A program made the position numbers and the translations under genes. A DNA stretch of 57,939 bases, the filler included, from Sphacelaria rigidula (Eukaryota), in NCBI GenBank assembly GCA_964200075.2. It is 6 parts of 6 records of this genome, joined end to end, with 100 filler letters (N's around TTAATTAATTAA, not from the genome) between each part and the next. Parts side by side here need not be neighbours in the genome. Positions count along the whole stretch, not along the records: positions 38,696 to 48,267 come from CAXNAA020008181.1; 5 more parts are not named here. One strand, given 5' to 3'. Shown here one piece after another: positions 9,575 to 48,367 of this stretch; positions within the stretch are counted from its first letter, which is position 1, and each line of letters begins with the position of its first letter. Under the pieces are notes generated by a model. That model was not told where the DNA came from and did no database searches. It saw nothing but the letters and a program-made list of their open reading frames with translations.

Positions 9575-9674
9575 NNNNNNNNNNNNNNNNNNNNNNNNNN
9601 NNNNNNNNNNNNNNNNNNTTAATTAATTAANNNNNNNNNNNNNNNNNNNNNNNNNNNNNNNNNNNNNNNNNNNN
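9575..9674. other. Artificial contig spacer (N44-TTAATTAATTAA-N44)
   Basis: 100-nt spacer with a six-frame-stop linker; the identical spacer recurs five times in the window. Confidence 0.98.
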
Positions 9675-19248: not shown

Positions 19249-19348
19249 NNNNNNNNNNNNNNNNNNNNNNNNNNNNNNNNNNNNNNNNNNNNTTAATTAA
19301 TTAANNNNNNNNNNNNNNNNNNNNNNNNNNNNNNNNNNNNNNNNNNNN
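19249..19348. other. Artificial contig spacer
   Basis: N44-TTAATTAATTAA-N44. Confidence 0.98.
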
Positions 19349-21146: not shown

Positions 21147-21365
21147 TGTGACCAAAATACGCCATTACGTTGAGTTGGTAGTGATGATATGGATAATGAC
21201 CGGAGACACTAGTTTGATACCCTGGCGTGTGTAGGTGGGTGCCTTGGAAGGTCACTCCGATAATATGAGATGTTGCAAAGGCTGACAACTGAAGCTGAGG
21301 ACAGTAAGACTGGGGAGTCCCTCAGTAGCAGTGATCCAGCAGTTCTTCCACTGGCTAGCGTCACA
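21147..21365 (+). repeat. 5' LTR (219 bp)
   Basis: TG...CA ends with a 6-bp terminal inverted repeat; near-identical to 26051-26297. Confidence 0.93.
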
Positions 21366-23348: not shown

Positions 23349-25976
23349 GTGGCGTCAAGTGGGATTAGCGGTGCATTGGTTAGCGGAGCAGGTGCCGCGG
23401 AGCTTGCCGGCGGATACATTCCGGTGGAGTTATGTCTTCCGAATCAACGGCAGCGCGGAGCCATTGTCGTCCGGTCTGTGTTGGATTCTGGCGCCCATTT
23501 CACTAGTCTGCCGGTCCAGATGGTTGAGATGCTGGAGCGTCAATTCCCTGGTGTGCCGCTGCGCATCCCGTTTTCGCTCGGGGTGCGGCAGGCAATCACC
23601 GCGCCAGGTCAGTATGTTTCAGTCACGGAGCGTACTGTTCTGTTGCATCTAGCCTTCAGGACTGCTTGGGGGCTGGCGCCGTTGCCTCCGATCTCGTTTG
23701 CGATTATGCCAGGGTCGGATGGCGTTGTTTTTTGGGGCTGCCGACGCTACAGGATCTACGAGTCGACCCGTATGAGCGGTTGAAGGACTCAATCAAGACG
23801 CGGATGTCTCCGCCTGGTCCGCACGTGGAGACGCTCGCCGTTCTGGGCAGTCGTCGCGTGAGCTTGTCGGTGGAACGCTTGGTAGAGCGCGGCCCGAAGA
23901 TATTTATTGATCCGGCGGAAGAGGAGTCCGCTCGGAAGGTCGCGCTGGAGGAGAGCGTGACGGGTGCTGGGGCGAAAAGCCTCAGCGTCTCAAAAGCAGA
24001 GCGCCTGCGCGGTATATTGCATTGCTCATGCGTGTTCACCTAAAACCTGGCGCGTCCGCGGTGAAGACGAAGCCGCGCCGGTACGATCCAGTGAAGTCGA
24101 GTTGGTTGGCGTTGTGCATGGCGGCTCTTTTGGCGCTTGCATTGGTGTTGCGGAATTCGCAGGCGGGGCGGTCAAGTCCAGATATGGCGTTTCCGAAGAA
24201 GGCTGCATCGTAGACGGAGGGCAAGCTGCAGGCGTGGGTAGCAGCGAAGGATCTGGTGGCTCATGCCGTGACGCTATTCCATCCTCGTCCTGATTGTCAG
24301 GTGTTTATGTTTCTGGATGCATCTGAGTGCCATTGGGGTAGTTTGGTCATGCAGGTGCCTAGAGTTGAAACTCAAATGCATGTGGACGCTGTGACTGTGT
24401 ATGGTCCGTGTGAACCTGATGGCTCGATGCCATCCAAATCTGTTGCCCACCAAGCGCAACGAGAAGACCTTGGGGCCCAAGATGCGGATGTGCAATCTTT
24501 CGAGTCGGACGTTAGTACTGCTATCTTGGACAATGAAGGTCTGTTTTGTGTGCATGTGCGTGGCCGAAACGTTTCGTGGATTCCGAGTTCCGGCAAGCAG
24601 TTGCAGGTACGTCTGATGATTTGCGCGCACATGCGCGACGCCGGGCATCGTGGTGTAGCTGCGACGCTCGTGCGCTTGCAAGAGTTTTGTGTCCGGCAAG
24701 GGATAGAAACTCATGTGCGCGAATTTGTCCGCCAGTGTCTTCACTGTGCTGATTCGAGGGCGGGCGATGTCGTTCCCCGCCCGCTCGGCGAAACGGTCCA
24801 TGGCATCACGCCGAATGAAGTTGTTCATTCTGACTTCTTGTACGTGGGCGAGAGTGGCCCGCTAGCTTCCCAAGGCTTGTCGGGGGATACTGGATTTTGA
24901 GACATTTTAGCAGTCATCGATGATTTGAGCAACTTTGTGGCTCTGGAACCAGTAGCAGTGTGTACCGCTGAATCTACCGCTGCATTTTTGCTGAATTGGT
25001 GCAAAACGTTGGGGGTGCCGCATGTGTGGGTGCGTGATACCGCCACGCATTTCAAGAATGCGATCTTGGCCCGATTGCGAGAGGCTTTGCGCGTTGATCA
25101 CCAGTTTGCGGTAGCGTATTCTCCGTGGTTTAACGGCACGTGCAAACGCATGGTCAAGGAAGTAGTTCGTGCTCTTCGCTCTATTCTTCTCGAGCAACGT
25201 AGAGCGGTTTCCGAGTGGGTGGACGTGTTGTCGGCGGTGCAATGGGCGCTTAATACAGCGTATCGTCGTCGTTACGATAGTACGCCGTACCACGTGATGT
25301 TTGGTCGTGCCCTTCCGACATCTTTCTCGGTGCTGGCGTCTTCGTCGGCGGGAGAATAGAACTGTGATGTTTTGGACGCTGTTCAAATCAAGAGTGCATT
25401 GCGAGGAGTCTTGGACTTGCAAGAACGTTTCCACGTTCAAGTGCAGGAACGTGTTGCCGCTGAACGTGCGCGTAGACGCGAGGGGTCCTCGTCGGGGCTA
25501 AAATTGCCGAATATTTGCGACTATGTCTTGTATGCACGCGTGCGCCGTCCGGGTGTTACGCCCAAGTTGATGGCGACGTGAACTGGTCCATGGAGAGTGG
25601 TTGGTGCTCACCACCCGCACGTGTTTGAGATTCAGATAATTATTTCGGGTCGTGTTCAGACCGCCCATGTAGCTCGTTTGCGTTTTTTTGCAGACTCGCA
25701 GCTGAATGTTACGGCTGACGTTAAGGACATCTTCCAGTATGCTTTCAATCAGGGGCATTTACGATGGCTGGTATCATCCGAGTGGCAGAAGCAGATGATC
25801 GTTCGTTGATCGTGTTGGTCGATTGGGTTGGTTTTGAAGTTGAGGAGCGTACGTGGGAGCCCTTCAAGGACATTTTTGAGGCCGCTCCGGAATTTCTTAC
25901 GAAGGAGTTGCGTAAATTGCGCGTGACTCGTGCCGTTGCTGCTCGCATTACGAGTGAGTTTGATATTAAATTGTGA
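23349..25976 (+). pseudogene. Gypsy pol remnant: aspartic protease, RT/RNaseH fragments, integrase, chromodomain
   Basis: VLDSGAHFT (PR); KPRRYDP (RT start); FLDASECHWG (RH); HMRDAGHRG..CLHC and VVHSDFLYVG (IN, catalytic E replaced by K in NGTCK); LVDWVGFEVEERTWEP (chromo). Confidence 0.88.
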
Positions 25977-26050: not shown

Positions 26051-26297
26051 TGTGACGAAAATACGCCATTACGTTGAGTTGGTAGTGATGATATGGATAA
26101 TGACCGTTGGTAGTGATGATCTGGATAATGACCGGAGACACTAGTTTGATACCCTGGCGTGTGTAGGTGGGTGCCTTGGAAGGTCACTCCGATAATATGA
26201 GATGTTGTAAAGGCTGACAACTGAAGCTGAGGACAGTAAGACTGGGGAGTCCTTCAATAGCAGTGATCCAGCAGTTCTTCCATTGGCTGGCGTCACA
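26051..26297 (+). repeat. 3' LTR (247 bp, with an internal 28-bp tandem duplication)
   Basis: Matches the 5' LTR except for a few substitutions and a duplicated GTTGGTAGTGATGAT(A/C)TGGATAATGACC. Confidence 0.93.
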
Positions 26298-28922
26298 CAC
26301 GTTATAAATTCTGGGTCATTATCCCCCGCCGACAGGTCGAACAGGGGTCTTCTGGCAGGGGTGGCTGTGCACCCGTAACAGGCGTACGTATTGTTCTCGT
26401 CCGCTTTGACGGGAGTCCTTACGCAGGTGCGGCCGTCGGCGTCCGCGTATACCCTGTCTTTACCGCCGTTGGGGTCGGCCATACGGAGGTATATGGAGTG
26501 CTGACCCCGATGTCCACGCCACACGCAAGGCAGAGGAAGGGGACCGATTTCCTGCCGCCCTTCGGGACTGGCGTTGTCCCCTGGGATACAGACACGTGGG
26601 TGGTGCAGACGGAGCACCTGTCGATGTCGAACGAATCGGGAGAAGGACGCAGGGACGGTTGCGGAACGTTTAGCGAGGAAAGTACGGAAGGAAATATAGT
26701 TGTACTGTGAGTGAATGCGCGACGAACGGGTTTTGAAAGCAACGATGTTAAGTAGTTGGAGAAAGAAGGAAGTTAGGTTGCTTTCAGTAATCAGATTACG
26801 AGCTGAGCCAGTCTGACACATTTTTAAGCGGTTGACCACCTTTGCACGTCCTGTCTAAGAGTCGAAAGCTGAAATTTGAGGGGTACAGTACTCCTTGATG
26901 AACTTACAGCGGGAAAACTCCGGCCTGTTAGTAACTGTGGCATTCTATACAAGCAAGTACAGCATGTAGGAGCGTGTTGTGTTCCGTTAACACAAAGAAG
27001 GTGGGAGGGAGGTCCCCTTCTAGCGACCCGTTCCTCATGCGTCTTGAACCGTCGGCTGAAAATGGTTGGTGTCAACTCCTATGGTAAAGGACACCGAACA
27101 CATGCATAATTGGGCTGGCAACTGGACCAGTGAATACTGTATGTCTTCATTGTTACTGGAGTTAAACTGGAAATGGCTACGAGAGCGCCGGCTGTCCAGT
27201 TCATGTGGAGGTGTTGTGCCAGTTGTCGTTACTGAGTATTTTTATATCAGTTCTACTATGGGGAGTTTATAACAAAGAAACATAACATATATAACTGGAC
27301 TGTACGATTGAAGTCTGTAGTCTGCAGCAGTACAGATACCACAAACTTCGTTGGTACGTAGTTGTTCTGCAGTTCAAATCTATCGACGACAGCGGATCGG
27401 TCGACGGTTGGTCAGTCGAATGAGGGAAATGAAATAAAGAAGTGGGACGCTTGATGCGGAAGTGCCGAACGCCAAACCCCAATTGTCAATTGCATGAAGA
27501 GCGTTCCGAACATGATGTAGTACATACCCATTGCTACATCTCGTGATGTAACAGATATGTACCTAATCCGAAAAAAAAACACGGTAGCCGGTGATCACAA
27601 AATACACAAGTATTTTCTTCAGCGAGCCGAGGTGAGAATTTACGCTCTTTGTCCTAAGGTACTGCCAGCCTTGGCATACTTGTTCCCATCTTCAGGTCCT
27701 CATGGAGAGTCTCTGCTGCTGCATACAGTACTACAAATAGATTATTTCGAATCGCTCACTACGTTTGAAGACATTTTCGAGTAGTATAAGCCTCTTAGCA
27801 GCTGAATGTAAGTGGTTGCATTTCTCACTATTTACGATTTTTGCCGGGAAAAGAGGTCAAACATCGTAACTTCTTCTGCCTCGGGCGGCGCACCTGCGCG
27901 GCACCCTCCACCAGCCGGAAGGGGCGATTTCCTAAAAAATTCGATGCACTGGCAACTGGCGCGGCCAATTCCAACCGAACTGAACAGAGCTGATTGTTCA
28001 CAGCCCTGAGAATAACCCTGTTTTTTCGTAGGGTTCGGGTGTGTTCGGTAGGGTATGAGAGTCTTTACAAATCTTACAGAACCAACGAGTACCGGGATAA
28101 AATTCGCACAGAGGTTGCAGAACCTATCAGGTAGGTCTAGGAGGCTTACAGAGAATCCAAAAGTTGTCGGATGATGAAAGAAGAATGCAAAGAAAATTGA
28201 ACACGCACTCGGATATTTGTACAAGGGTATAGGGGTAAATCTTGTGTACAGAAAATACACAACTGTCGGGTAAGGTTCTCAAAACCTGAGGGAAGGTGGC
28301 CGCTTCGGGTCCAGTTAAACATCCGAGGATACCATCGAACAGCAACACCAAACTTTTCGGAAATCGGCATCAGGCAGTGCTTGAAGAACGAAACAGAAAT
28401 CAACAAGTTACCGTTCGAAAACAATGCGCATGGAACGCTTTGCAGGTTGGAAGACACCGATTTTGATGGGAAGAAACTTCTCCGGGCCCCCATTTCTGTT
28501 GTATCAGCCTGTCAAAAGTCTTTCCTCGTTCATCAATGCCTGGCTGGGGGACAGGGAAGCCGTCCTCCCTCAGGTTTTGAGAGCCGTTTGCATTGTGTGG
28601 ATGCAGTTCATAAAAATCAAACTCTCTAGCTTTCACAGATGTTGCGACTTCGGTGCAGTTTGTTACCGTGACCACCTCTGAGCAGACGAGAGTACGCGCT
28701 AGAGCAACGAAAGGTAGCTATGACCCGGTTTGCCTACCGTACTGCCGACAGTGTCGCTTCAAAGCCACAAGACCCTTGCTGTCGGCGGTTGATGCCGTGG
28801 GTCTCGAATACAACGACATGCGGTTGATCGTAGAGCACTCTCGTCTCTCCTCCCAACTTGTGATAATCCATGACCTCCTGACATCGGAATAATTATTACT
28901 GATGGGAAGCTACTCGTACTGT

Positions 28923-29022
28923 NNNNNNNNNNNNNNNNNNNNNNNNNNNNNNNNNNNNNNNNNNNNTTAATTAATTAANNNNNNNNNNNNNNNNNNNNNN
29001 NNNNNNNNNNNNNNNNNNNNNN
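28923..29022. other. Artificial contig spacer
   Basis: N44-TTAATTAATTAA-N44. Confidence 0.98.
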
Positions 29023-29204
29023 GTGTTTCCATGTACTTACTATTTATACCCGAGTCGGGCAGCATCAGAGTGGCCCAAAATTACCCAAACAATATCTTCT
29101 AGTGAAGCCAAACCGCGTAAAAACACGCCTCCGGCGGGGCGCCTCCAGCGGGGCCTCCTCACCAGCCGGGGGAGGGCGGTGGTCGCGGCTTCGCCGCGGC
29201 ACCA

Positions 29205-31511
29205 GTGTACTGTTTGGACCCAGTATACTGGCTGCTGACCGCAGCCAGTACACCTGGTACTGGCGCTGCGCGCCAGTACCCAACCCTAGTATTTGAGGAA
29301 CATTTGACCCTTATTTCCCACGCTGATTGGGCCAGAGAACAACAAGCTGAACCTGCTTGTAGAGCAGCTGTGCATTATTTATCCACAGGTTGTCCGTCTC
29401 CTTTTCCAGCAGCCGAATTCCTCTTGCCCGTTGGGAACCACAAAGCCCCCACACAGGATGAAGTTACTGAACTATCGCGGAAAGGTATGCTTTTTACGGA
29501 TGATGATGGTGTCGTTCTCTTGGTTCGCCGGCCTACAGCGCCTCTTCGTGTGGGTAAACGTACCAGTAAACGCGCCTGCCTGTTCGGTGATGACCCCACA
29601 CGAATTTATGTGCCGATGCTGCTGCGCCCATGGGTTCTCCATGAGTGTCATCCACAAGCATCGACATATTTGGGAGTTGCTCGGACCTCCCAGATGCTTG
29701 AGCGCTTCTATTCGTGGATTTGTATGGACCAGTGTGTACGTTGGTGGGTGAGGCGTTGTCTTTTGTGTCAGGCGCGAAAAACTTCAGGTCAGAAAGTTCG
29801 TTGGCCGATTGTTTCCATGCCACTCCCAAACGGGCCTGGTGAAGTAGTTTCATGGGACTATTTTGGCCCCTTGCCCCTGACGGATAGTGTTCATAAGTAT
29901 ATTTTGTTGTTCACAGATAGATTTAGTCGACATGCAGTGATGCACGCCGTCGCTGCCAGTAGCTATAACGCGGAAGGTACCGCCAACATTCTTGTATACA
30001 CGTATATTCCGCACTGGGGTGTGCCGAAACGATTGTTATCCGATGACGGCCCGTATTTCGCCGGCAAGCTTTCTGCTGCGATCAGTAACCTCCTGGGTGC
30101 TTATTGTATTTTTACAAGCTCATACCATCCATCCACAAACGGTGGGACCGAACGAGTGAACCATGCGATGGCTCAAATGCTTGCAACAGTAACCAACGAA
30201 CGACAAACGGACTGGGACTTGCATTTGCCCCTCATTCAAATGAACTACAACAATTCAGTCAATGCCGCAACGGGATTGGCTCCCAATGAAGTTCATGTTG
30301 GTCGTATGCCCAGATTGCCACTTACGGTGTTCGAACGGAAACCTCACGGGGGCCACCAGAGTTTGAATAGGGATATCGCGGAGTGTCATATTTCTGTCAG
30401 TAATCGTCTTCGTCTTACGTGTGAGGTGGTACGCGAGCAAAACCAGATCAACGCAGCGAAAGTAGGCAGGGCAAACACTGTGTTGGATGATGCGGCCAAC
30501 AATCGTTCGATGTGGAAGGTAGATCAATGGGCATGGGTGTACAATGATGTGAAGACCGTAACTCAGGGGGCTAGCCTCCATAAGTCGTCGTTGGATAAGG
30601 TGTTGAAGTCGAAACTATCCTTGAATTGGACTGGCCCCTGGCAGATCTTGGCGGTAGGGCCCTGTGATGCCGCACCCGACAATAGTCCGGTAGGCGAGAA
30701 AATTTTGTATTTGGATTTTCCCACTGATGAACCTGGCATCAAACCCAAAAACCGAGTATCGATGCTGAGATGTAAACCGTGTCTACCCCCGCATGATGCA
30801 TCCGACATGCCCAAGCAATTGCCAATGGGTCTCAGTCAGTACGTGTTGACCAACTATGCGGTCAAAGCCCCCCCACATCACATGACGGTTGAAGATGCCA
30901 ACGGACCCCTTGAGCGAGTAGTGGTAGATCGCATCTCGGGCCATCAAGTAGTCCGAGGTCGAGGAGGTAAAACAGCGGTTATGTACCAGACTCATTGGAA
31001 GGGTATCATGCGTGTTACATGGGAGCGTGAAGTTGACTTACGTCAATTTCGTCGGGAAATATTGCTGTACTGGGTAGGAGATGCCGTCCAACACCTCCCG
31101 TTGAATAAGATATATAAGTCGATGCGCAAGGGACCTGCCGCTCGGGAACTGGCACGAGAGCACTCGGCGCGGTTTTTTGTAGCAGGATAAAGCCTTCTCT
31201 CGCGTTCACAATACGTGCAGTCTTTTCACGGACAACGTTTACCGAAAGGAGCGTACTTTTGGTACAAGGCTTTGGATTCCCTGTGGTGGTTGGGTAATAT
31301 ACATTTGGTCGATTCTGCATCTGACCATTCCTACTTTATCCGTTTCCTCGATGACCCGATTCCCCTTAAGATCCGCTTGGATGATGCCTACTACACCGAG
31401 GAGTCGACCGCTCGGAGGGGATCCTGGTGCCTCCAACGACACGACCAAGGCGAACTCGACACAGCCGTTCTACGGAACACGGACACCGCTTGGGATACAG
31501 ATGAGTCATGA
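29205..31511 (+). pseudogene. Ty3/Gypsy pol C-terminal part: integrase + GPY/F + chromo-like + Tudor-like domain (one in-frame stop at 31188-31190); 5' part off the contig
   Basis: Zn region ..CLLCQARK; WDYFGPLP; SD(35)E spacing intact; WTGPWQI; ORF 31215-31511 is in the same frame. Confidence 0.9.
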
Positions 31512-38595: not shown

Positions 38596-38695
38596 NNNNN
38601 NNNNNNNNNNNNNNNNNNNNNNNNNNNNNNNNNNNNNNNTTAATTAATTAANNNNNNNNNNNNNNNNNNNNNNNNNNNNNNNNNNNNNNNNNNNN
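38596..38695. other. Artificial contig spacer
   Basis: N44-TTAATTAATTAA-N44. Confidence 0.98.
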
Positions 38696-39793
38696 GTTTT
38701 GGGCTCGAACCTCATTTCATTGATGAACCTCATTTTATAGAATTCTCTGTTTCTTGGTGTTCCGGTTCGTTCACCAACGCCAGCCACGCTTAGAATTGCT
38801 GTTACTTCAAATCATCACATGCTGACCGTTATGCAGCTTCACAACGCCACCGCGTACCGTTATCCGTCATGACCCTGCAGTTTTACAATGCTGCCGCGTG
38901 TTGGGGTAAAAATGATGTTGAGAAGGATGGCGGTTAAGTGAACGATACGCAGTGGTGTGAAATGTTTGCGTCTATTAATCCCGAAAACGCATCGTGACCT
39001 GTCTGTAGTGAATCTCCATTGAATCACGAATTACGCATGCTACCAGGCTAGGCAGCCAATTTGTCGTGGACGGAAAGTGCGAGGTTTGAATGAACGAAGC
39101 ATGAGGCATTTACCCTACCCCCTGGTCAGGGGCGGCAGGTCATTGATAGTCGGAATGTTTATTGTCGTGGAAATGGATGTAACCTCAACGTGGTTCTCCC
39201 TGTAGGAAATCTCAAGGTTGTGGGATGTCTGCTCCGATTTTGAACAAACCAGACCCAACCGTGTATTTTAGTTAGTTCACGACTTTCAATACGTGGACGG
39301 ATCGTATCCAAGTGCACTCCTGCACTGACCACAATATTGTTCTCTCTTCTGCAGTATAGGTTGAACGATCCCCGGGGCTGCGGATGATCAACCATCAGTC
39401 ATTGATAACTTACGTTTTCCACCCGTGGCTGGGATGATCAATTCAACACTGCCACGATTGGGCAGCTACTAGGAGTGTTGCGAGTCAAGAGACCTGCAAG
39501 GGGCTACCCGACGGATGCTACACCAACTCCCGTTGTCTGTCTACTCTGCGCGCACCGACAACCAACCCCAAAAGTTGATCGTCTATCCGTGCATACTATG
39601 ACCACCATCGGGACAGGGCTGCGTTCTTCTGGGCAGGGCTTCTGGTCTTGAGGGTCTACGGGTTCCACGCATTCTTTTGACGAAATATAAATCAAGAAAG
39701 AAACCGACAGGGCGGTTGGCTGGTACTGAACGACGAGAGTAATAATTGTGGACATTATGCACTTTGCAAGCATGCAAGCCAGACAACGTGTGA

Positions 39794-42700
39794 ATGAATT
39801 GGAAGATCGTGGGGTCAGCGGTAATTCCGATTCGGTTCCACCCAAAAAACAGAGTAAGGAAAGTATGGGTTAGGGTGGTCGATGGATTGCCGTACGGATT
39901 TATTTTGGGAGCAAGTTTCTTTAGAAGGAACAAGAGAACACTGTCTTTTGAAGGTCGATCAAGATTTCGACCTTCGCCGGAGGCCCCGTGGGTAAGATTC
40001 GGGTCTAATGGTTCACCAAAAATCGGAGCTATTGACACCGATCACCTCACCGGCCAAGGAGATTCGGCAAGGTGGGATCTCTTCTGTGCTGTCAAGCCAA
40101 GCGCGCTCAGTGACGACCCGACGGGGGTATTGTCGGGAGAGAGCGATCTGGCAGCATGGGATGAGATGTGGGAGAGCCTTGGAGCGGCGTGGGAGGATGA
40201 CGCTACACTTCAGTGGCTTCTGCGGCTGACGGAGGACACACGGTTAGAAGGCTTCGTTAGTGAGCTAGTTCCAGGCTACATGTGAGGCCCTCAACCGCAG
40301 GAACGTCAACTCGTGTTGATCGATTCTCGAAAGTTGTTCGATTTAGATGAGGAAGCCGAAATAGGGGTAGCCAGGGGAGTGCAGTGGTGGGACCCACAGT
40401 TGCCGTTAGTATGTAAGTTGGTCGACAAGGCCAAGAGTGCTCGCCTAGTGAAGAAAGGTATGATAGTGGCGAAGGTTGTGGCCGTGAATGTTCGAGATCG
40501 CGAGCAGTTGCAAACCCTGTACGTGTCCGACTCGGGCACCACGCTTAAGTCGAGACTGGAGGATCGAGGGACTATGCGAACTCCTCCCCAACCGCCCCCG
40601 GAACCAACGGAAGTGGAGGAGAAGGACACAACTGAGGCCACAGGAGTAGATCTCACGGAAGCGAACATGGGCCAGTTGGGTCCAGCGCAGAAGACTCAGC
40701 TGTTACCCGTGTCAAGAGACTTCAACGAAGCAGGTCTTTTCGCGGTGGACCCCAAGCGGGTGAAAGCCGCGCGTGGGGAACCGTTGCATCTACGACTGAA
40801 AGATCCCCGGTGCCGGCCATGCACTGCCGGTACTAGGCGGTACTCGCCAGAACAAGAAACAGCTATACAAGACGAGGTCCAGAAAGTCGTGGAGCGGGGG
40901 ATCATTGAGCCGTCGACGTCCGCATGGGCAGCTGCTTGCGTCACGGTGTGGAAGAAGGGCGGTAGTTTACGGTTGTGTCAAGATTATCGTGGACCAAACG
41001 AACTTCTCGAGTCGCATAGCGGTGGATTGGGGGATATGCAGACCATGTATAGTGGCCTAGCAGGATCCAAGTACTTCACGAGTGTGGATTTAGCGAGTGG
41101 GCTTTTATTACAAGAGCGGGATTTCCGTCTTGGACCCATCAAGGATAGTTTAAGAGAGGGGCCTAAGTATGAAGGAGCTGGCAAGAGGCGGGATGCGAAC
41201 GTGCTCGATGATAATAATCTTTTATGGTACACCTCCCTTAAGGAGCCAGCCAAGTTAGCTATCCCGCGCAGCCTAGTGCCAGGGCTGCTGGCGTGGGTGC
41301 ACACTACGCACGGGCACGCCGGAGTAATGAGGACGACTGCAGTAGTCAACGCGAGGTACGAATGGCCTGGTCTTGTCGCCGATACTCGCAAATACGTGTT
41401 GTCTTGTGGATGTCGCCGACGCAAGCGTACCAACAGCCACACCCTAGCGATGCGGCCCGCCCGATTCCTGCGGGCATGGGAGGTGTTAGAGATGGACATA
41501 TCGGACATGAAGCAGGTTTCCACCTCAGGCAACAGGTACTTGTTGATCATCGTGGATCGAGCAACCAAGTTTTTCTTTGCTTCCCCATTGGCTGCCAAGC
41601 TCACGGTACCCGTAGCGAAATGTCTGCTGAAGCTCTTCTTGACGTTTGGGGTACCCTGTTTTTTAAGGAGTGACGCTGGGGGCGAGTTCACGTCGGAGGT
41701 ATTGAACCATGTATGCCAGTGGATGAAGGTGAAGCTGGATCATGGTCCGGCAGAGCATCCTCGCGGTCAGGGCGCGGTAGAGAGGTACGGGGGATGGTTG
41801 CACGACGTTTTGGCCGAGCTCTGTAAGCAATGGCCGGAAAGGCGGGATGAGTACGTAGACCCCGCTGTGTGGATTCACGGTACTACTCCCGATCCTTCAT
41901 TGCCTAATAGCCCGACTCCATTTAAGCTGCTTTTTGGGCGCGAGCCACGCACCCAAATAGACGCTGTGTCACCTGAAGCGGAGTCTCCACCGCTGAGCAA
42001 CACGGTGGAACAACAGCGCCAAAATCTGAAGGAGGTTCACGAGCTGTTAAACCAGCGCCACAAGCAAAGGGAAGAAGTAAGATCGGCTAGAAATGCCGAG
42101 CTGAGTCGCCAGTCGGCGGGGTCTCGAACTTAGGTAGAGGATCTGATGTTAGTGAAGGAGTCCGACAGCTCCCTTGTACACGAGGATGTGCCGACTGAAC
42201 TAGTGCACGACTTGTGGACGGGACCATGGACGGTACAGCAAGTGGTGATACCTCGTCTCAGCCTTAAGGTCAGCATGCAGGGGCGCAAGGTACGAGAACA
42301 GACAGTGTCGGCCGCCAATGTGAAGAAATTTCATGTGCGCCCTGAACAGCTGCGACATCCGTTTCCGGACGAGTACTCTCAGTTAGTATGGGAGTCTGAT
42401 TTGGGGTTGGCTGAAGAGATCGCATCCGTCCCGCAGCTGTGCACATTGGCAGATAGGAAGGTGGTGCTAGGATCAGGATCGTCATTGGAGTGGGCCTATC
42501 GGGGGTTATTTCATGACGGAGCCGAATCTCACTGGCTTTCTGAGGAGGAAGTGTTGGACAGTTTTACTGGGTTGCAGCTGGACGTGTTTCATGCTTTGTG
42601 GAAGCTTTATCACCCGCAAGCCAAACCACGCCCATCTGTTACGCCATCTCGAGCAGAAAGAGACTCTATTGCTCGGAATGAAGCTTTGCGACAGATTCCC

Positions 42701-42898
42701 CCAGGGACTAAAACCCGTAAACGATTTGTGGACAGCCAAGGTGAGCAGCAGGAGTTCGACGGGGTGGTGTTCGATTTCCGGCAGCCGTATTATCGTATCA
42801 AGTATGAGCATAGGGATTGGGAAGAGATGACGCCATTGGAGGTGCGAAAATATGCGGTGAATTGGCAGGATACCGGAACATTTGCGGGGTCTAACTGA
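39794..42898 (+). pseudogene. Ty3/Gypsy pol with in-frame RT-core/RNaseH deletion; integrase + chromo-like + Tudor-like tail
   Basis: Three ORFs in one frame separated by single stops; RRYSP..IIEPSTSAWAA..LRLCQDYR..YFTSVDLASG (RT N-terminus) fused to IN (HTTHGH..CGC; EMDI; SD(35)E; WTGPW). Confidence 0.9.
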
Positions 42899-43164
42899 TG
42901 GAGAAAAGGGATCGTTTCTGCACGGTATTTAAATTCCCTACGTGGTTTAACCCGGCAGAGCAGTCAGCAAGACAGCGAACCCCCGGGCGGGATAGAATTG
43001 TTCCTGCGCGGTGTTGAAATGCCCTACGCGGTCTAACACAGCAGAACGGTTATCAAGATCGACGGGTACACCAAGACACCGAGTACTCGGGAAGAGGGAC
43101 ATGGTAACGCGGCGATCCATCGTATGAACCACGTTCAGTCCCAGGGCTTTTCAACCCTAGGACT

Positions 43165-43560
43165 GAGGGGGGGTTATACGGATCGCGGCGTGGCGTGGTG
43201 GATAAGGGTAGTACGATGATGGGCCGTCGATTTCAAAACGACACTACGGGCCCGGAGGACTGATTGCGGGAACTGGCTAGTACCGCAATCAGGGGTGAGG
43301 ATGATGCAATCCGTCAAGAGACGGAATACATAAACATGTCTCTTTACATCTGGTTGGATCCTGTTCTTTTCAGGGATCGACTCAAGCAGATGTCACCCTG
43401 GTGTTCACTTCTCTGAAGTGCGAGTCAACATCACGAAGAGAAAAAGAGAAATCGAATCGGCCTGAAGCTGTGATCGACAATATCCTGACGTTTGTCGTGT
43501 ATCGTTCTGCGTAGGACTTTCCCCACATGCTGTAAGCTTAGGATGGTTTCAGGAATAACG
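43165..43560 (+). repeat. Possible PPT and 3' LTR of the preceding Gypsy element
   Basis: Purine tract GAGGGGGGG followed by (G)TTATAC..., possibly ending AATAAC; no partner LTR on the contig. Confidence 0.3.
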
Positions 43561-45625
43561 GTGAGACTGTAAAGATGTTTGATTCAAGCAGTGAGCAGAT
43601 GCAAGAAAATCGACATGATAGCGAAACGAGCTTTGTGCACAAATGGAATGGTGAAAGATGTGACCATATAGTAAAAGTAAGTCGTATTTACAGGAGCCAG
43701 CGAAACTTCGTGACTTGCATGATCGAAATTGTGTTGTTGCTTTGCTCTAGTACTCGGCTTGCACAGTAGATATACGCAAATGCGACAATAAGTCTGGCCA
43801 ACACCAATCTGTTTGTACCACAAGACCTGTGCGGTCGGTGGTTGATCGCGTGGGTGTCAAATGCAACGACAAGTGGTTGATCGTAGAGCACTCTTGTTCC
43901 TCGTGGGGTCATATCTCGCTCCAGCTTGTAATGCGTGACCTCCTCACATCGGAGTTAATTCTGGAAAGCTACTGTACCGAGGTTTTCACGCAGCCAGTGT
44001 GTGCTCCAGATTGCAGCATGGATGCACACCCCTCTGCACCACCCTAGTAACAGTTAGGTCACCACCATAGGTATCTTTTTTCACTCTGCATGTTGAGAAG
44101 GTCTCCATGAGAGTTTGATGTCTCATACACTCCCCCCAACTGGCTTGTGGCACGCTCTTGTGGTCGGGCACCCAGGTGGTCACATGTCGGGTAAAGTCAA
44201 CGCTGAATAACACCCCCCAAATTCAAATTGGATCTGGTATTGCCGCAGCACCATCCTTGCTGGCATGTGTGTGGCAGAGAACAGTAGCGGTGACGGGGAC
44301 ATTGCCCTGTTTTTCAACGGCATGTGTTTCAGCGCACAGAAGCGCGTCCCGTCCAAGAAGAGAGGCAGAGAGAAATCGATCTTCGCATTGGTGAGCTCCA
44401 CAAACAAGAAGAGACGAGATTCCTCCGCACCTCGATGTTCTTTGTGGAGCTATGCGCAGCAATATAATAACATACCTGCCGGCACATGAGAAATTGGGTA
44501 CATGCTGGTTACATGCATGATGCCAGTCTCTCGAGCGATTGGTAATCGCCGAGCGAGGACACACAAAGAGCACGGGCGAGCAATTTCCTCTCTGCCGTTG
44601 CCTGTCTCTCTGGTGATATCGTCATCGACACGCGTGTATACCGCATTCGTTCGGTGCAACTAGCCACAACTGCTTCACTGCTGCAGACTTTTGGGGGGAA
44701 ATATGGCTTCTCTCTGTGTAACTGTTTCGCGTCATTCCTGCAAAAAAGATATGCCGATTTCACCTCATTTTAGAGATCAACCCAATTCTCCATGATCCAT
44801 TGTTACTAGTAGCAGATATAGATTCTGGAGGATTGTATACCCCCACTGTAGCCTTTTCTAGTGTGCGTTTGCTGGCGGCTACGGCTTGTGAACAGGCTTG
44901 TATTGCGTCATTTTGAAGTTGTAACAGGGTTCGTACAGTCTTAGTTGGATGAGGAAGTATTTATGCCCTTGCCGCCTGGTTGTGGCAGCTTGTCTGGTAA
45001 AATAGTGAGACTGAATCGTTCTTTGTACGGATTGAAACAAGCGTCTAGGCAATGGCATAATCACTAGGCAAAACGCTTGGATGTCCTAGGGCTAAAGATC
45101 AATGCTCGGCGGATTCATGTGTATTTCGGTTGATGGAGGATAGCAGGGTAATTATAACCATCGTGGTATATGTAGACGACATTTTGCGGTAGGGGAGAAG
45201 GAGAGATACGAAGAGTTTGGTAAGGACCTCAACACTGTGGTTCCGGTGGAGAACCTTGGGGAATTGCGTTGGTCTTCTGGACTGTACTATGAGAGAGACG
45301 GGAAGAGGGACCCTCAAGATTTCACAACAGACGTGCACAGAATAGGTGGCGAAGGAATACGGTGTAGAGTGAGGAAAGATTATTCCCATTGCTGCTAGTG
45401 TGAAGCTTAATGAAGAATTCAGTGTAGAAGAACAGAAAACGAAACTTCCGTTTCGGGAGTCAGTAGGATCGCTGATGTGGCTGGCAACTCAAGCGAGGCC
45501 AGGCACATCCAACGTAGTATGTGCAGTAGCGAGATATCGTACCTCATCTAAACTCATTCATTGACATACTGCCCTTGGCATTCTGAGATATGTGAAGCGA
45601 ACAAGTTCACTAGGGATGGCTTCCT

Positions 45626-46069
45626 AACACGAGATCTTACAAAATGGGGATGAATGTTTTATTGAGGATGAGAAACCCGGAGAGTTAAAGTCTTCGTATC
45701 CACACCAAATCTTCGAAATATGGTTCCATTTTTTCACCTTCTGATAGCTATTGACAACTGTCACACGCCATTGAAATTTGGGTTTGGATCACCGAAATGT
45801 TGGGGTCCTAGGTGAAAAACCAATTTCGGCATCATATGAGCGTCTGTTCGGACACCCAAAACTCCCCAAAACTGTTTTTTCACCTAGGACCCCAACATTC
45901 AGGTTATCGAGATCCAAATTTATATGTCGTGCAGCAGTTGTCAAAAGTTATCAGTAGGTGAAGGAATAGAACTATATTTCGAAGATTTGGTGTGGATACG
46001 AAGATTTTCATTCTCCGGGTTTCTCATCCCCAATAAATTATCCGACCCCAATTCGTAAGATCCCGTGTT
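45626..46069. mobile_element. Fold-back MITE (444 bp) inserted in Copia
   Basis: Arms of about 190 bp are inverted copies (AACACGAGATCTTAC / GTAAGATCCCGTGTT); TCCT duplicated on both flanks. Confidence 0.85.
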
Positions 46070-46418
46070 TCCTGTAGGGAAAGCGTGTCGGAACTAAGCT
46101 TTCTAGTGTTTGCAGATGCCGACTACGCAAGTAAGGCAGCTGATAGATGGGCGGGTATCTGGGGGACCAATGATGTGTGGGGGTGGGTATGTGTCTTGGT
46201 TTCCTAGGACGCAGAAGTCCGTAAAGATGCCTACAGCGGAGGCAGAATACGTCGCTATAACGGATATCAAGGAGGTATTGTTTCTGAGGCAGGTTTCGCG
46301 CTTCTTCTTTTTTGTTGCCGGAGGTGGGAATTCCGTGCATTCCCGTGTTCGAGGATAACCAGGGAGCTATTCAGCTTGCACAGAATCCTGTAACAAACTC
46401 CAACTCCAATCACTTTGG

Positions 46419-46843
46419 ACAGACAATTTTTTAGAATGAGGTTGTATACTAAAATGAGGTTCAAGCCCAAAACAGTGTTTCCCTATACTTACAGCGACAA
46501 TGTCCAAACACTTTTTTTGTCGGCATGATGCCCGTTGATCGCGTAAATACCTTTCTCAGCGCATTTTACTGACTCTGTGAGCTCACAACGCTGAGCGAAA
46601 CTGCCATATTCCCTAATTTTTCAGGAGGGGGGGGGGTGATATCGGGGAATATGGCAGTTTCACTGAGCGCTGTAAGCTCACAGAGTCAGTAAAATGTGCT
46701 GAAACATTATCTACGCGATCGAAGGGCATCATGCTGACATAAAAAACCATTGAGCACCATCGCTGTAAGTGTGGGGAAAGCACTGTTTGAGGCTTGAACC
46801 TCATTTTTTTAGTGTACAACCTCATTTTATGGAATTGTCTGTT
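46419..46843. mobile_element. Fold-back MITE (about 425 bp) inserted in Copia RNaseH
   Basis: Near-palindrome ACAGACAATT...AATTGTCTGT; related termini at 38696-38750 and about 48160-48200. Confidence 0.82.
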
Positions 46844-46848
46844 ATTGA

Positions 46849-47257
46849 CAGGGGTCTACACGTTACAGGTGACTCTGTAACGTGAAACATTCGGGAAAAC
46901 GTGTCATTTAAAGCTACGTAAGATTTGATTTTTTGGATGGGTGTAACGTGACATGATGTAACATGTGGTCCTTCGAATAAACCCTAACAAAGCGTTTTAC
47001 TTTCGAAATGTGAGGAAAACTTTGATTATGTTCGTGAATTTGTGACGTGTCACGTGTCAAGTTAAAAATTCACAAGAACAGTTTTTTTTCACGGTTGGAA
47101 AATCCCAAGAGACACTGCTTCAAGATCCACACGTTACATCACGTTACGTTACATTTGTCGTGTCCAAGAAATCAAACCTTACGCAGCGTGAAATGACCCA
47201 GAGTTACGTTTCTTCCGTTTTTTCAAATGCGTTACGTGTGTTACGTGTATATCCCTG
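46849..47257. mobile_element. hAT-like non-autonomous element (409 bp)
   Basis: TIRs CAGGGGTCTACACGTTAC / GTTACGTGTATATCCCTG; 8-bp TSD GTTATTGA/GTTACTGA; repeated subterminal CGTTAC/GTAAC motifs. Confidence 0.8.
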
Positions 47258-48267
47258 GTTACTGACGTGCGACATCATCTTATCAGGGAACTGGCAGCGA
47301 GGAAGGATAGTTCGAGTATTCACCTACATACTGTCGGAATTTCAGCATGCAGACTTCTTGACTAAGGTACTACCGACGGAGACTTTCACATTTCATCGTA
47401 ATTTCGTCATGAATACTGTGTAACGTTTCCAACACTCTAATGCGTTGATCTGATGTGACTAGTAGTAGTGTTGATGTAAGCTGAGTTTTGATTTACATGG
47501 TATACTGATTTGATTGTTTCTCTTTGATGAGTTGACTTGATTCGAGATTAGATTCATCTGGTGTACTGATTGGATCGTTTATTTTCAATTGATGTGAGTT
47601 GAGGTTGGATTCCTCCGATAAAGTGATTTGATTTGATAAATAGATGTAGTTGCGAGTTGACTCAAATCCATATATGTGGAGACCACCTATTTTTTATGTA
47701 TGAGCGTACTGGACATCCAAATACACATGTAAGGCGGAGAAACAGTCTCAGGAACGGGGTCCGCCAGTGACACACATGAGCGGACCCGAGACATGCAAAC
47801 CTGTGAAACTGGATCTTGGGCAACCTAGGCAAAGAGGGTCTCCGGTACAAAAGCCCGAAACAGCGGGGCCACCGCATGAACTCTGGTAGAATGTAGCCGG
47901 TACTACCGTACCACCTCGTTCACTCCTTCTCCTTGCCTACCATCGGTCACGGCCGGATCCTTGCCTAAATGACAAGAGAGAGAATTACGCCTCGCTCTGG
48001 AGATCCTTCGGCAGCAGGGTACAACAACGTTCTTCTTCGGGACCCGTAACTCTACTGCCTCACCCCTAGCGAAGCCTAGTTCACACATACATCTGCTTCT
48101 TTTCAAGTATGAGCTAGTTTTGTTTCGATCTGAGATACTTGGATCCACTTGTTTGAAACTATTGCTTGGGGTTGAAACACAAAATGAGGTTGAAGTCCCA
48201 TTTAACAGGGTTGCCAGAAAAATGAGAACGTATTTTGAAATGAGAATCAACCGCTCACCGGGATTGT

Positions 48268-48367
48268 NNNNNNNNNNNNNNNNNNNNNNNNNNNNNNNNN
48301 NNNNNNNNNNNTTAATTAATTAANNNNNNNNNNNNNNNNNNNNNNNNNNNNNNNNNNNNNNNNNNNN
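48268..48367. other. Artificial contig spacer
   Basis: N44-TTAATTAATTAA-N44. Confidence 0.98.

Follow-up and report, generated by a model that had tools for sequence, protein, structure and literature searches.

A decayed Ty3/Gypsy element in Sphacelaria rigidula

The window analysed here, meaning the whole 57.9-kb stretch of Sphacelaria rigidula DNA, consists of six separate pieces of ~9.57 kb with N/TTAATTAATTAA spacers between them, and the Gypsy element that we describe sits in the piece spanning positions 38696-48267, with all of its features on the plus strand. What survives of the element begins with a remnant (39803..41104) of the protease region and of N-terminal reverse transcriptase (RT) sequence, which tblastn aligns to residues 366-775 of P0155 (41% identity, E=3e-80), an Ectocarpus polyprotein of 1881 aa that carries RT, RNase H (RH), H2C2, rve and Tudor domains, in that order, in one protein. 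An in-frame TGA at 40283-40285 lies inside this remnant. The alignment to P0155 then reveals an internal deletion junction (41104..41111) at which the reading frame is kept: residue 775 of the relative ends at 41104 and residue 1299 begins at 41111 in the same frame, with the ~523 residues in between (776-1298) absent. The missing stretch comprises most of RT, RNase H and the pre-integrase segment (in P0155, RVT_1 spans residues 723-882 and RNase H residues 954-1082), and an alignment to another relative, P0138, makes the same jump.

The open reading frame at 40286-42133 encodes the first two integrase domains, an H2C2 zinc-binding domain at 41261..41425 (residues 326-380 of the frame; Pfam PF17921, 40.4 bits) and the catalytic core, rve, at 41480..41761 (residues 399-492; Pfam PF00665, 33.0 bits against a cut-off of 32.6). 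An in-frame TAG (42131..42133) interrupts pol between this core and the SH3-like C-terminal (GPY/F) domain, or CTD, which follows at 42134..42334 and has its GPW motif at 42221-42229. The CTD was identified from an AF2 model (pLDDT 88.1) and from VIA-align, which matched the RSV integrase CTD (4fw1_B) to model residues 1-67 with Z 7.1 and an rmsd of 1.7 over 50 aligned residues; Pfam SH3_Tf2-1 matched weakly in relatives. The succession of H2C2, rve core and SH3-like CTD with a GPY/F motif is that of a Ty3/Gypsy integrase, and the pol order RT-RH-INT is seen in the relatives P0155 and P0177, RT and RNase H being deleted from the window copy. Judged by its sequence, the element appears to be a Ty3/Gypsy retrotransposon of a lineage found in brown algae.

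As the initial annotation had claimed, the pol frame continues past the GPY/F motif, running from GPW on to 42898, where the positions of in-frame stops place the pol stop codon, a TGA (42896..42898). The peptides quoted in support of that claim lie where they had been placed: LCTLADRKVV starts at 42437-42440, EWAYRGLFHDGAESHWLSEEEV in the chromo-like segment lies at ~42488-42553, PPGTKTRKRF starts at 42698, and the stretch ...RDWEEMT has its last base at 42832.

We found no recognisable gag upstream of 39803, where the pol frame has 13 stops; residues 1-365 of P0155 gave no alignment to the window copy, and no LTR pair lies within piece 38696-48267. If a gag of the length of that in P0155 is present before 39803, the 5' LTR would precede the start of the piece. 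The window copy is a relic, a dead deletion derivative in which RT and RNase H are gone and stops interrupt the frame, and it is therefore itself incapable of tethering or targeting.

Domains beyond the GPW motif

The frame after GPW encodes three small barrels: the SH3-like CTD, a chromodomain-fold domain and a Tudor domain of Pfam family PF21743. This confirms the earlier observation of an integrase tail that ends in a chromo-like and a Tudor-like domain.

The chromodomain-fold domain (42422..42619) was delimited on an AF2 model of the tail (pLDDT 88.6) with VIA-align, and DSSP assigns it two long strands, a one-residue bridge and a C-terminal helix; the AF2 model with pLDDT 88.1 likewise supports the fold. 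All VIA-align rows on this domain (28/28, Z 6.8 to 4.6) are chromo or chromoshadow proteins, a count that includes eEF3, GEN-1 and ZMET2 (3/28), which we take to be chromo-bearing. The best match is 7vrf_A (Z 6.8), and the H3K9me3-bound chromodomains of Oxpecker, Chp1, HP1 and Rhino are among the others; chromoshadow domains come within about 1.3 Z of the best chromodomain. In the ESM Atlas, the 10 best named clusters for the domain are Chromo (score 0.88). A profile of the domain compared with PDB sequences returned the CDYL2 chromodomain as its top four matches, in register and at marginal E values (0.077-0.16), and Pfam Chromo (PF00385) matched 0/60 family members at E<=1. What had been annotated as a chromo-like segment thus holds up as a chromodomain fold in the model and fails as a Pfam Chromo match, and the case for a putative chromodomain is one of predicted fold. 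An hhalign comparison of the chromo-like profile with the integrase C-terminus of a Gypsy in piece 4 was not significant (probability 0.07, E=0.67). That other Gypsy of the window has a weak chromodomain, and it was on this chromodomain that the hhalign alignment landed.

Conservation within the chromodomain-fold domain peaks in the helix LQLDVFHALW rather than in the putative cage. When the cage positions (Y24, W45 and Y48 in HP1 numbering) are placed by the marginal CDYL2 alignment, the W45 equivalent is Y/F in 25/43 sequences and the Y24 and Y48 equivalents are non-aromatic. Conserved aromatic residues nearby include W120 (36/40), Y122 (37/41), W134 (36/46) and Y103 (21/40).

A linker helix (42650..42694; DSSP, model residues 173-187) leads into the last barrel, the PF21743 (PTM/DIR17-like) Tudor (42686..42865, with the Pfam match at ~42704-42847), which is modelled as a four-strand barrel with a pLDDT of 93-97. 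PF21743 is the sole Pfam match of the tail. At 19.8-20.9 bits (E=3e-4 to 7e-4), the window copy stays below the gathering cut-off of 27.2, which two close relatives exceed: P0003, 76% identical, with 29.8 bits, and P0001 with 33.4. The family was also matched at E<=0.01 in 9/15 long relatives scanned and at E<=1 in 31/60 family members. The claim of a PTM/DIR17-type Tudor is borne out by these matches, and the sequence evidence supports assigning the C-terminal barrel to this type. Its conserved core contains the aromatic and acidic residues Y/F213, D214, Y/F215, Y219, W220, Y224, D226, D228 and W229, a composition typical of methyl-lysine or methyl-arginine cages; the window copy departs from conserved Tudor positions by W220Y, D226H and G227R. 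In VIA-align, the barrel matches the Tudor domains of PHF19 (Z 5.1), SMN (4.9), FXR1 (4.9), RDM15 (4.8) and the BAHCC1 TTD (4.6), and KOW, BirA and designed SH3 barrels match it equally well (Z 4.6-5.8).

Cellular PF21743 proteins belong to the same Pfam family as the Tudor of the element, but they are host-type and come without an integrase. One of them, P0150 (637 aa, no TE domains), has four tandem PF21743 copies (132 bits) with a core, ...PYYKVVYEDGDSEEL, that is close to the ...PYWRVRY.DGDWEEL of the element.

Foldseek with the 160-aa tail gave nothing at E<=1e-3 against either the PDB or the BFVD viral models, and the whole-tail profile (A2) had 0 matches at E<=10 among PDB sequences. 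The SETDB1 triple-Tudor, which supplied the sole Foldseek matches in the PDB at E<=1e-3 (4), was rejected as a match to the whole tail: with TM values of 0.14-0.16, these matches reflect a string of barrels and no real superposition.

Relatives and conservation of the tail

When 1.84 billion proteins were searched exhaustively by HMMER with the 254-aa stretch encoded at 42134-42895, 483 cluster representatives emerged at E<=1e-3 and 208 at E<=1e-10, many of the 483 covering the tail out to residues 238-240. The named relatives are all brown algae (Nemacystus, Cladosiphon and Ectocarpus). The same C-terminal layout ends several uninterrupted polyproteins, including P0155, P0177 (1649 aa), P0002, P0006 and P0052.

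Conservation of the tail among family copies, which the initial annotation had put forward as a check, was found. Among 13 long family members, mean pairwise identity is 0.41 in the chromo-like domain and 0.37 in the Tudor, compared with 0.40 in rve, 0.39 in H2C2 and 0.24-0.33 in the linkers, and the information content per column is 2.20 bits for the chromo-like domain, 2.10 for the Tudor and 2.28 for the CTD. By mean pairwise identity, the chromodomain-fold and Tudor domains are as conserved as the catalytic core.

A test of dN/dS had been proposed at the same time. A metagenome scan for suitable loci yielded 2 related ones among 114 pattern matches, and synonymous sites were saturated in all three pairwise comparisons (pS 0.69-0.95), one locus having a stop inside the Tudor; for both reasons the test is not valid as a dN/dS test. 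With this saturation of pS, the chromo-like domain has the lowest pN/pS of the tail (0.29-0.34), in line with constraint. The Tudor ratio (0.60-0.81) comes from three saturated comparisons that include decayed copies, and therefore does not show constraint. Overall, the analyses establish the domain layout, the folds and the conservation of the tail, and the lineage that bears it, with its 483 cluster representatives, is widespread and under constraint.

Discussion

We describe a Ty3/Gypsy integrase tail in which a chromodomain-fold domain precedes a PF21743 Tudor domain. Domains of these two kinds commonly anchor proteins to chromatin that carries marks. The initial annotation knew of no description of such an architecture, a statement that has been overtaken for the Tudor part by a report on Ectocarpus (Genome Biol 2025;26:320; PMC12477816), in which Gypsy-10_Ec32 (Gypsy-10_ES) is put forward as the first case of a transposable element bearing a Tudor domain. 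In that account, the Ty3/Gypsy pol of this element ends in a Tudor, one full-length copy is found alongside numerous deletion derivatives, a homolog occurs in Tribonema, and the element represents the one Tudor-bearing lineage given for Ectocarpus (PMC12477816). The same account interprets the C-terminal domains as readers of chromatin that are tied to targeted insertion, treats the chromodomain-bearing Ectocarpus lineages as unrelated to chromoviruses and places the Tudor lineage apart from them (PMC12477816). Ectocarpus proteins including P0155 belong to the same family as the tail in the window, and we liken the window copy to Gypsy-10_Ec32 by the published description and by these relatives. 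Since it is only ~42% identical to the Ectocarpus proteins, it would represent another family of the Tudor-Gypsy lineage. In its description of Gypsy-10_Ec32, the report names only the Tudor, and no chromo-fold domain before it (PMC12477816). What may be new here is the chromo-fold domain that precedes the Tudor, the Tudor-bearing lineage having already been reported.

Comparison with better-known systems helps to place this tail. In chromoviruses such as MAGGY, a chromodomain directly follows the integrase GPY/F motif, as the chromo-fold domain does here; the tail described here differs in that its chromo-fold domain goes undetected by Pfam Chromo and in that a helix and a Tudor barrel come after this domain. 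Retrotransposon chromodomains are described as keeping a W-containing β-3 motif (TWE), those of group II being without Y24 and Y48 (PMC3350952). The family studied here keeps S-x-W..E and, on the marginal CDYL2 alignment, is without the Y24/Y48 aromatics, as are the group II forms. The VIA-align matches that include the RSV integrase CTD also contain 7jyz, an entry for the MLV integrase CTD with the Brd3 ET domain. As functional analogues of the present system, retroviral integrases choose integration sites through chromatin-reader domains, HIV-1 integrase with the PWWP domain of LEDGF/p75 and MLV integrase with BET proteins. There, however, the reader is part of the host partner, whereas the integrase polypeptide of the present family contains its own.

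On these grounds, we consider it probable that the locus holds a decayed, non-autonomous Gypsy of a brown-algal lineage whose intact members use the chromo-fold, helix and Tudor tail to tether themselves to marked nucleosomes. In such members the tail would most likely tether the integration complex to nucleosomes with a particular methylated histone residue, and this tethering would bias where new copies land, as chromoviral chromodomains do. The Tudor barrel would be the more likely ligand-binding unit, with the chromo-fold domain either co-reading a second mark or supporting the Tudor. That the tail binds histones, which mark it reads and whether it targets insertion are matters of inference here, and the interpretation of the initial annotation, a two-reader module for chromatin targeting, is as a whole partly supported.

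Other readings of the tail have to be weighed against this one. The tail may read no histone marks at all, and instead combine a chromoshadow-like dimerisation or packing module with a generic SH3/KOW barrel whose ligand is nucleic acid or a host protein. Chromoshadow domains do occur among the structural matches (HP1alpha CSD, Z 5.5; Chp2 CSD, Z 5.3), although the top seven for the chromo-fold domain are chromodomains of the classical kind and not shadow domains. The canonical aromatic cage looks incomplete, and conservation is highest in the helix LQLDVFHALW (D150 in 50/54 sequences, A154 in 48/54); chromodomains in general are also described as mediating dimerisation and DNA or RNA binding (PMC3350952). 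KOW, BirA and designed SH3 folds fit the last barrel as well as Tudors do, but by sequence this barrel falls in PF21743, above the cut-off in two relatives, and aromatic and acidic residues abound in its conserved core. We regard a tail without any reader as rather unlikely. It is somewhat easier to imagine, though still doubtful, that the Tudor is the sole reader and that the chromo-fold domain is a degenerate relic, like plant group II chromodomains, serving as a spacer or scaffold. The lack of Pfam Chromo matches in all 60 members fits such a relic, as do the non-aromatic equivalents of Y24 and Y48 on the marginal CDYL2 alignment, the same residues being described as missing from group II retrotransposon chromodomains (PMC3350952). 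Yet the chromo-fold domain is conserved like the catalytic core (0.41 versus 0.40), its pN/pS, the lowest of the tail, exceeds in constraint what a spacer needs, and the conserved W120, Y122, W134 and Y103 could form a non-canonical pocket.

A tail foreign to the element, with a decayed integrase joined at this one locus to a host exon or to an open frame that arose by chance, would suit the decay of the window copy, whose integrase core is cut off from the tail by a stop codon, and the existence of stand-alone tandem PF21743 Tudor proteins such as P0150. However, the same layout ends uninterrupted polyproteins from several sources, e.g. P0155 and P0177, and there are 483 related cluster representatives. 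Together with the conservation among 13 long members, these observations refute a foreign tail in practice, and we consider it extremely improbable.

Returning to the tethering of intact members to marked nucleosomes, the histone marks reported for brown algae bear on what the tail might read. The MAGGY chromodomain is described as binding H3K9me2/3 and targeting integration (PMC3350952). In the accounts available for brown algae (PMC12477816, PMC13076208), Ectocarpus is reported to have neither H3K9 nor H3K27 methylation; H3K27 methylation is absent in 5/5 brown algae analysed; H3K9me1 or H3K9me3 occurs in 2/5 of these species (D. herbacea and U. pinnatifida) as well as in the outgroup S. ischiensis; and brown algae are reported to be without 5mC DNA methylation. 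With H3K9 and H3K27 methylation reported absent there, the usual chromoviral target would be unavailable in Ectocarpus. It is tempting to speculate, as a tentative proposal, that the Tudor-Gypsy lineage of brown algae has a tandem reader built in, made of a non-canonical chromodomain and a PF21743 Tudor, for a combination of marks specific to brown algae. Distant members may have a second Tudor-like barrel as well.

Readers fused to an integrase indicate the chromatin states that serve a transposon as landing sites. The present case raises the question of how brown algae mark their repeats, given the reported absence of 5mC and H3K27 methylation and the scarcity of H3K9 methylation. In this regard, the chromo-fold and Tudor tail is a ready-made probe, whose ligand, once found, could be compared with existing ChIP-seq maps. 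If the tail is indeed a tandem reader, that ligand, for example H4K20me3, H3K79me2 or H3K36me3, would reveal the safe landing site of the lineage.

Results

The element lies in the fifth piece (38696-48267) of a window composed of six separate pieces of ~9.57 kb, so that features cannot be read across the joints; the five spacers (9575-9674, 19249-19348, 28923-29022, 38596-38695 and 48268-48367) each consist of 44 N, TTAATTAATTAA and a further 44 N. Its single plus-strand pol frame, 39794-42898, is broken by a TGA at 40283-40285 and a TAG at 42131-42133. Between these stops (40286-42130), Pfam recognizes the integrase H2C2 domain (40.4 bits) and the rve core (33.0 bits against a cut-off of 32.6), while the 254-aa tail beyond them (42134-42895) has its GPY/F motif in the GPW form (42221-42229) and continues for ~220 residues past it. 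The two peptide segments quoted in the initial annotation map to 42437-42553 and 42698-42832, and the sequence it described is present as stated. Its reading of this end as a chromo-like domain plus a Tudor-like domain proved essentially right by Pfam, AlphaFold2 models and structural matches. By eye, we also noted a purine run, GGAGAAAAGGGA, at 42900-42911 directly 3' of the pol stop, a possible polypurine tract, and two imperfect ~44-base direct repeats, 86 bases apart, within 42920-43049.

The window copy is a dead, non-autonomous deletion derivative. Residues 366-775 and 1299-1880 of P0155, a related Ectocarpus protein of 1881 aa, align in the same frame to 39803-41104 and 41111-42856, and because the alignment jumps from residue 775 to 1299, ~523 residues have been deleted, among them the whole of RNase H and the bulk of RT. 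The pol frame contains 13 stops before 39803, and the first 365 residues of P0155 find no alignment there. Conserved positions are changed relative to the family consensus (Y103C, P146G, W220Y, D226H and G227R). No LTR pair was found in 38696-48267; if a gag of P0155's length lay before 39803, the 5' LTR would precede the piece start. In a Nemacystus relative of 496 aa (P0024), a further deletion derivative retaining the tail, segments upstream of the integrase are apparently joined straight to the chromo-Tudor region.

As modelled, pol terminates in three small barrels in series, which would account for SETDB1 triple-Tudor entries being the only Foldseek matches of the whole model at E<=1e-3, with poor TM-scores of 0.14-0.16. 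Tail residues 1-67 resemble the integrase C-terminal domains (CTDs) of RSV (4fw1_B; Z 7.1, rmsd 1.7 over 50 residues), SIV, MMTV and HIV-1.

A chromo fold for the second domain, 42422-42619, is well supported by structural modelling. By DSSP, residues 3-68 of the tail-only model comprise two long strands, a one-residue bridge and then a helix, and all 28 VIA-align rows on this domain are chromo or chromoshadow proteins. The leading rows include Chd1 and, at the top, the Oxpecker chromodomain with H3K9me3 (Z 6.8, rmsd 2.5, 59/61 residues), followed by Chp1 (Z 6.1, rmsd 2.0, 53/55), then SUV39H1 and Drosophila HP1 (the latter Z 5.9, rmsd 2.0, 51/53); no Z reaches 8, the tool's threshold for caution, but agreement across rows is complete. 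In the eEF3, GEN-1 and ZMET2 rows, we take the aligned range to be the chromodomain. At the sequence level, Pfam Chromo matches none of 60 family members. A profile built from 16 chromo-like segments (A3), searched against 177,635 PDB sequences, gave nine matches at E<=10, the best four being the CDYL2 chromodomain (E=0.077-0.16), with D-R, W-E-Y and W..E in register, and the next unrelated acetyltransferases (E=0.18-0.24). The ten best named ESM Atlas matches to the segment of a relative, P0001, are all Chromo clusters, at a score (0.88) that serves only as a lead. We conclude that homology to classical chromodomains is likely. By the marginal A3-CDYL2 alignment, the W45 equivalent alone among the cage positions is aromatic (Y/F in 25/43), the Y24 and Y48 equivalents not being so, a pattern shared with group II retrotransposon chromodomains in passages of PMC3350952.

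A different Gypsy integrase at 29121-31190 (+), with H2C2 at 41.5 bits and a weak rve, ends in a weak Pfam Chromo match at ~30921-31061 (E=0.046, 14.1 bits), so that a chromodomain-only Gypsy lineage is present in the source as well. Aligned to this C-terminus with hhalign, A3 landed on the weak chromodomain without significance (probability 0.07, E=0.67).

The sole Pfam family matching the tail is PF21743, the PTM/DIR17-like Tudor, at residues 191-238. The window copy's score of 19.8-20.9 bits (E=3e-4 to 7e-4) falls under the 27.2-bit cut-off; the Tudor call is supported by scores above it in P0003 (29.8 bits; 76% identical to the window copy) and P0001 (33.4 bits). The family is detected at E<=0.01 in 9 of 15 long relatives scanned, and at E<=1 in 31 of the 60 members of family alignment A2, some of which lack this region. 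Both AlphaFold2 models (254 aa, 54 sequences, pLDDT 88.1, pTM 0.70; and 160 aa, 60 sequences, pLDDT 88.6, pTM 0.59) fold the Tudor region into a four-strand barrel with block pLDDT 93-97. Six of the 22 VIA-align rows on this last barrel we count as Tudors, by title or presumed identity: PHF19 (Z 5.1), SMN (4.9), FXR1 (4.9), RDM15 (4.8), MTF2 (4.8) and the BAHCC1 TTD (4.6). The remaining rows are KOW, BirA and designed SH3 barrels (Z 4.6-5.8). The fold alone is a small SH3-like barrel, and its Tudor identity comes from the sequence family.

The tail is conserved among family copies. Mean pairwise identity among 13 long members is 0.39 for H2C2, 0.40 for rve, 0.43 for the CTD, 0.41 for the chromo-like domain and 0.37 for the Tudor, against 0.33 and 0.24 for the linkers, so that the tail domains match the catalytic core in conservation. 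In the 54-sequence alignment, mean information per column is 2.28 bits (CTD), 2.20 (chromo-like), 2.10 (Tudor) and 1.61 (chromo-Tudor linker). Comparisons involving two related loci, which include decayed copies and in one case a stop within the Tudor, gave pN/pS values of 0.29-0.34 (chromo-like domain) and 0.60-0.81 (Tudor), at saturated synonymous sites (pS 0.69-0.95). These ratios do not support constraint on the Tudor; protein-level conservation supports it.

The same tail was found in P0001 and P0002 by a word-seeded search among longer proteins. Exhaustive HMMER over 1.84 billion cluster representatives matched 483 at E<=1e-3, many of them short fragments, 208 at E<=1e-10 and 29 at E<=1e-30. 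Source-named relatives are all brown algae (Nemacystus decipiens, Cladosiphon okamuranus and Ectocarpus sp. CCAP 1310/34), the other records being from ENA, Logan or JGI. P0155 joins RVT_1, RNase H, H2C2, rve and PF21743 (residues 1837-1878) in one chain, and the more distant, full-length P0177 (1649 aa) has the same order; Ectocarpus proteins of the family contain the chromo-like segment. In the distant branch, an extra post-Tudor domain of ~90 residues (P0090 601-681, P0116 470-559, P0110 287-373, P0177 1546-1632) is nearest to PF21743, Spin/Ssty and Agenet Tudor clusters in the ESM Atlas (0.85, a lead only); the C-termini of these integrases may comprise a chromo fold and a pair of Tudor-like barrels. 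Separately, P0150, a 637-aa Logan contig protein without transposable-element domains, carries four tandem PF21743 repeats (132 bits) between acidic/serine-rich linkers and resembles the element's Tudor at E=3.7e-13; it is a candidate for the type of host gene from which the Tudor was captured.

Other repeats were observed in the window. Direct repeats at 21147-21365 and 26051-26297, 97-98% identical and ~4.9 kb apart, flank an ORF (24214-24900) with RNase H and H2C2 matches, an arrangement suggestive of a short LTR element whose LTRs are young. Two long imperfect palindromes of 424-444 bases, 78-80% self-complementary, lie downstream of the element (45626-46069 and 46419-46842), and the piece start, 38696-38751, resembles one arm of the second. 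By blastn, 43818-43953, 1 kb downstream of the element, matches 28765-28888 at the end of piece 3 (139 columns, 74% identical; 84% over an 85-nt core), which may reflect a shared repeat or LTR.

Discussion

This decayed element probably belongs to a lineage already described in print on account of its Tudor. Our literature search for Tudors in retrotransposons or integrases returned one relevant description (Genome Biol 2025;26:320; PMC12477816), whose passages report four Gypsy lineages in Ectocarpus, three with putative C-terminal chromodomains and one, Gypsy-10_Ec32, with a C-terminal Tudor, presented there as the first transposable element of this kind. The Tudor-bearing lineage is said to comprise one full-length copy and numerous deletion derivatives, and to have a homolog in Tribonema minus. 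The passages of an earlier survey of chromatin domain-transposable element fusions report mainly Chromo and PHD (bioRxiv 10.1101/2021.11.30.470311). The initial annotation knew of no description of this architecture, which does not hold for the Tudor; the chromo-like domain of that lineage goes unmentioned in the main-text passages and Figure 1 legend of PMC12477816. A conserved chromodomain-fold domain ahead of the Tudor may be new.

As to what the tail does, the main rival to chromatin reading is a non-histone role. In its favor, conservation within the chromo-fold domain peaks in the helix, chromoshadow domains match that domain almost equally well, and the last barrel is as similar to KOW and SH3 domains as it is to Tudors. 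On the side of chromatin, passages of PMC3350952 describe the MAGGY chromodomain as binding H3K9me2/3 and directing integration. Passages of PMC12477816 and PMC13076208 report brown algae to be without H3K27 methylation and 5mC, and Ectocarpus without classical H3K9 methylation, H3K9me1 or H3K9me3 being detected in only three analysed species, outgroup included; they link H3K79me2 and H4K20me3 to repression and repeats. A Tudor could plausibly read marks such as H3K79me2/H4K20me3. By analogy with chromoviral chromodomains, we infer that the most probable role of the tail is to anchor the integration complex on nucleosomes bearing a particular mark.
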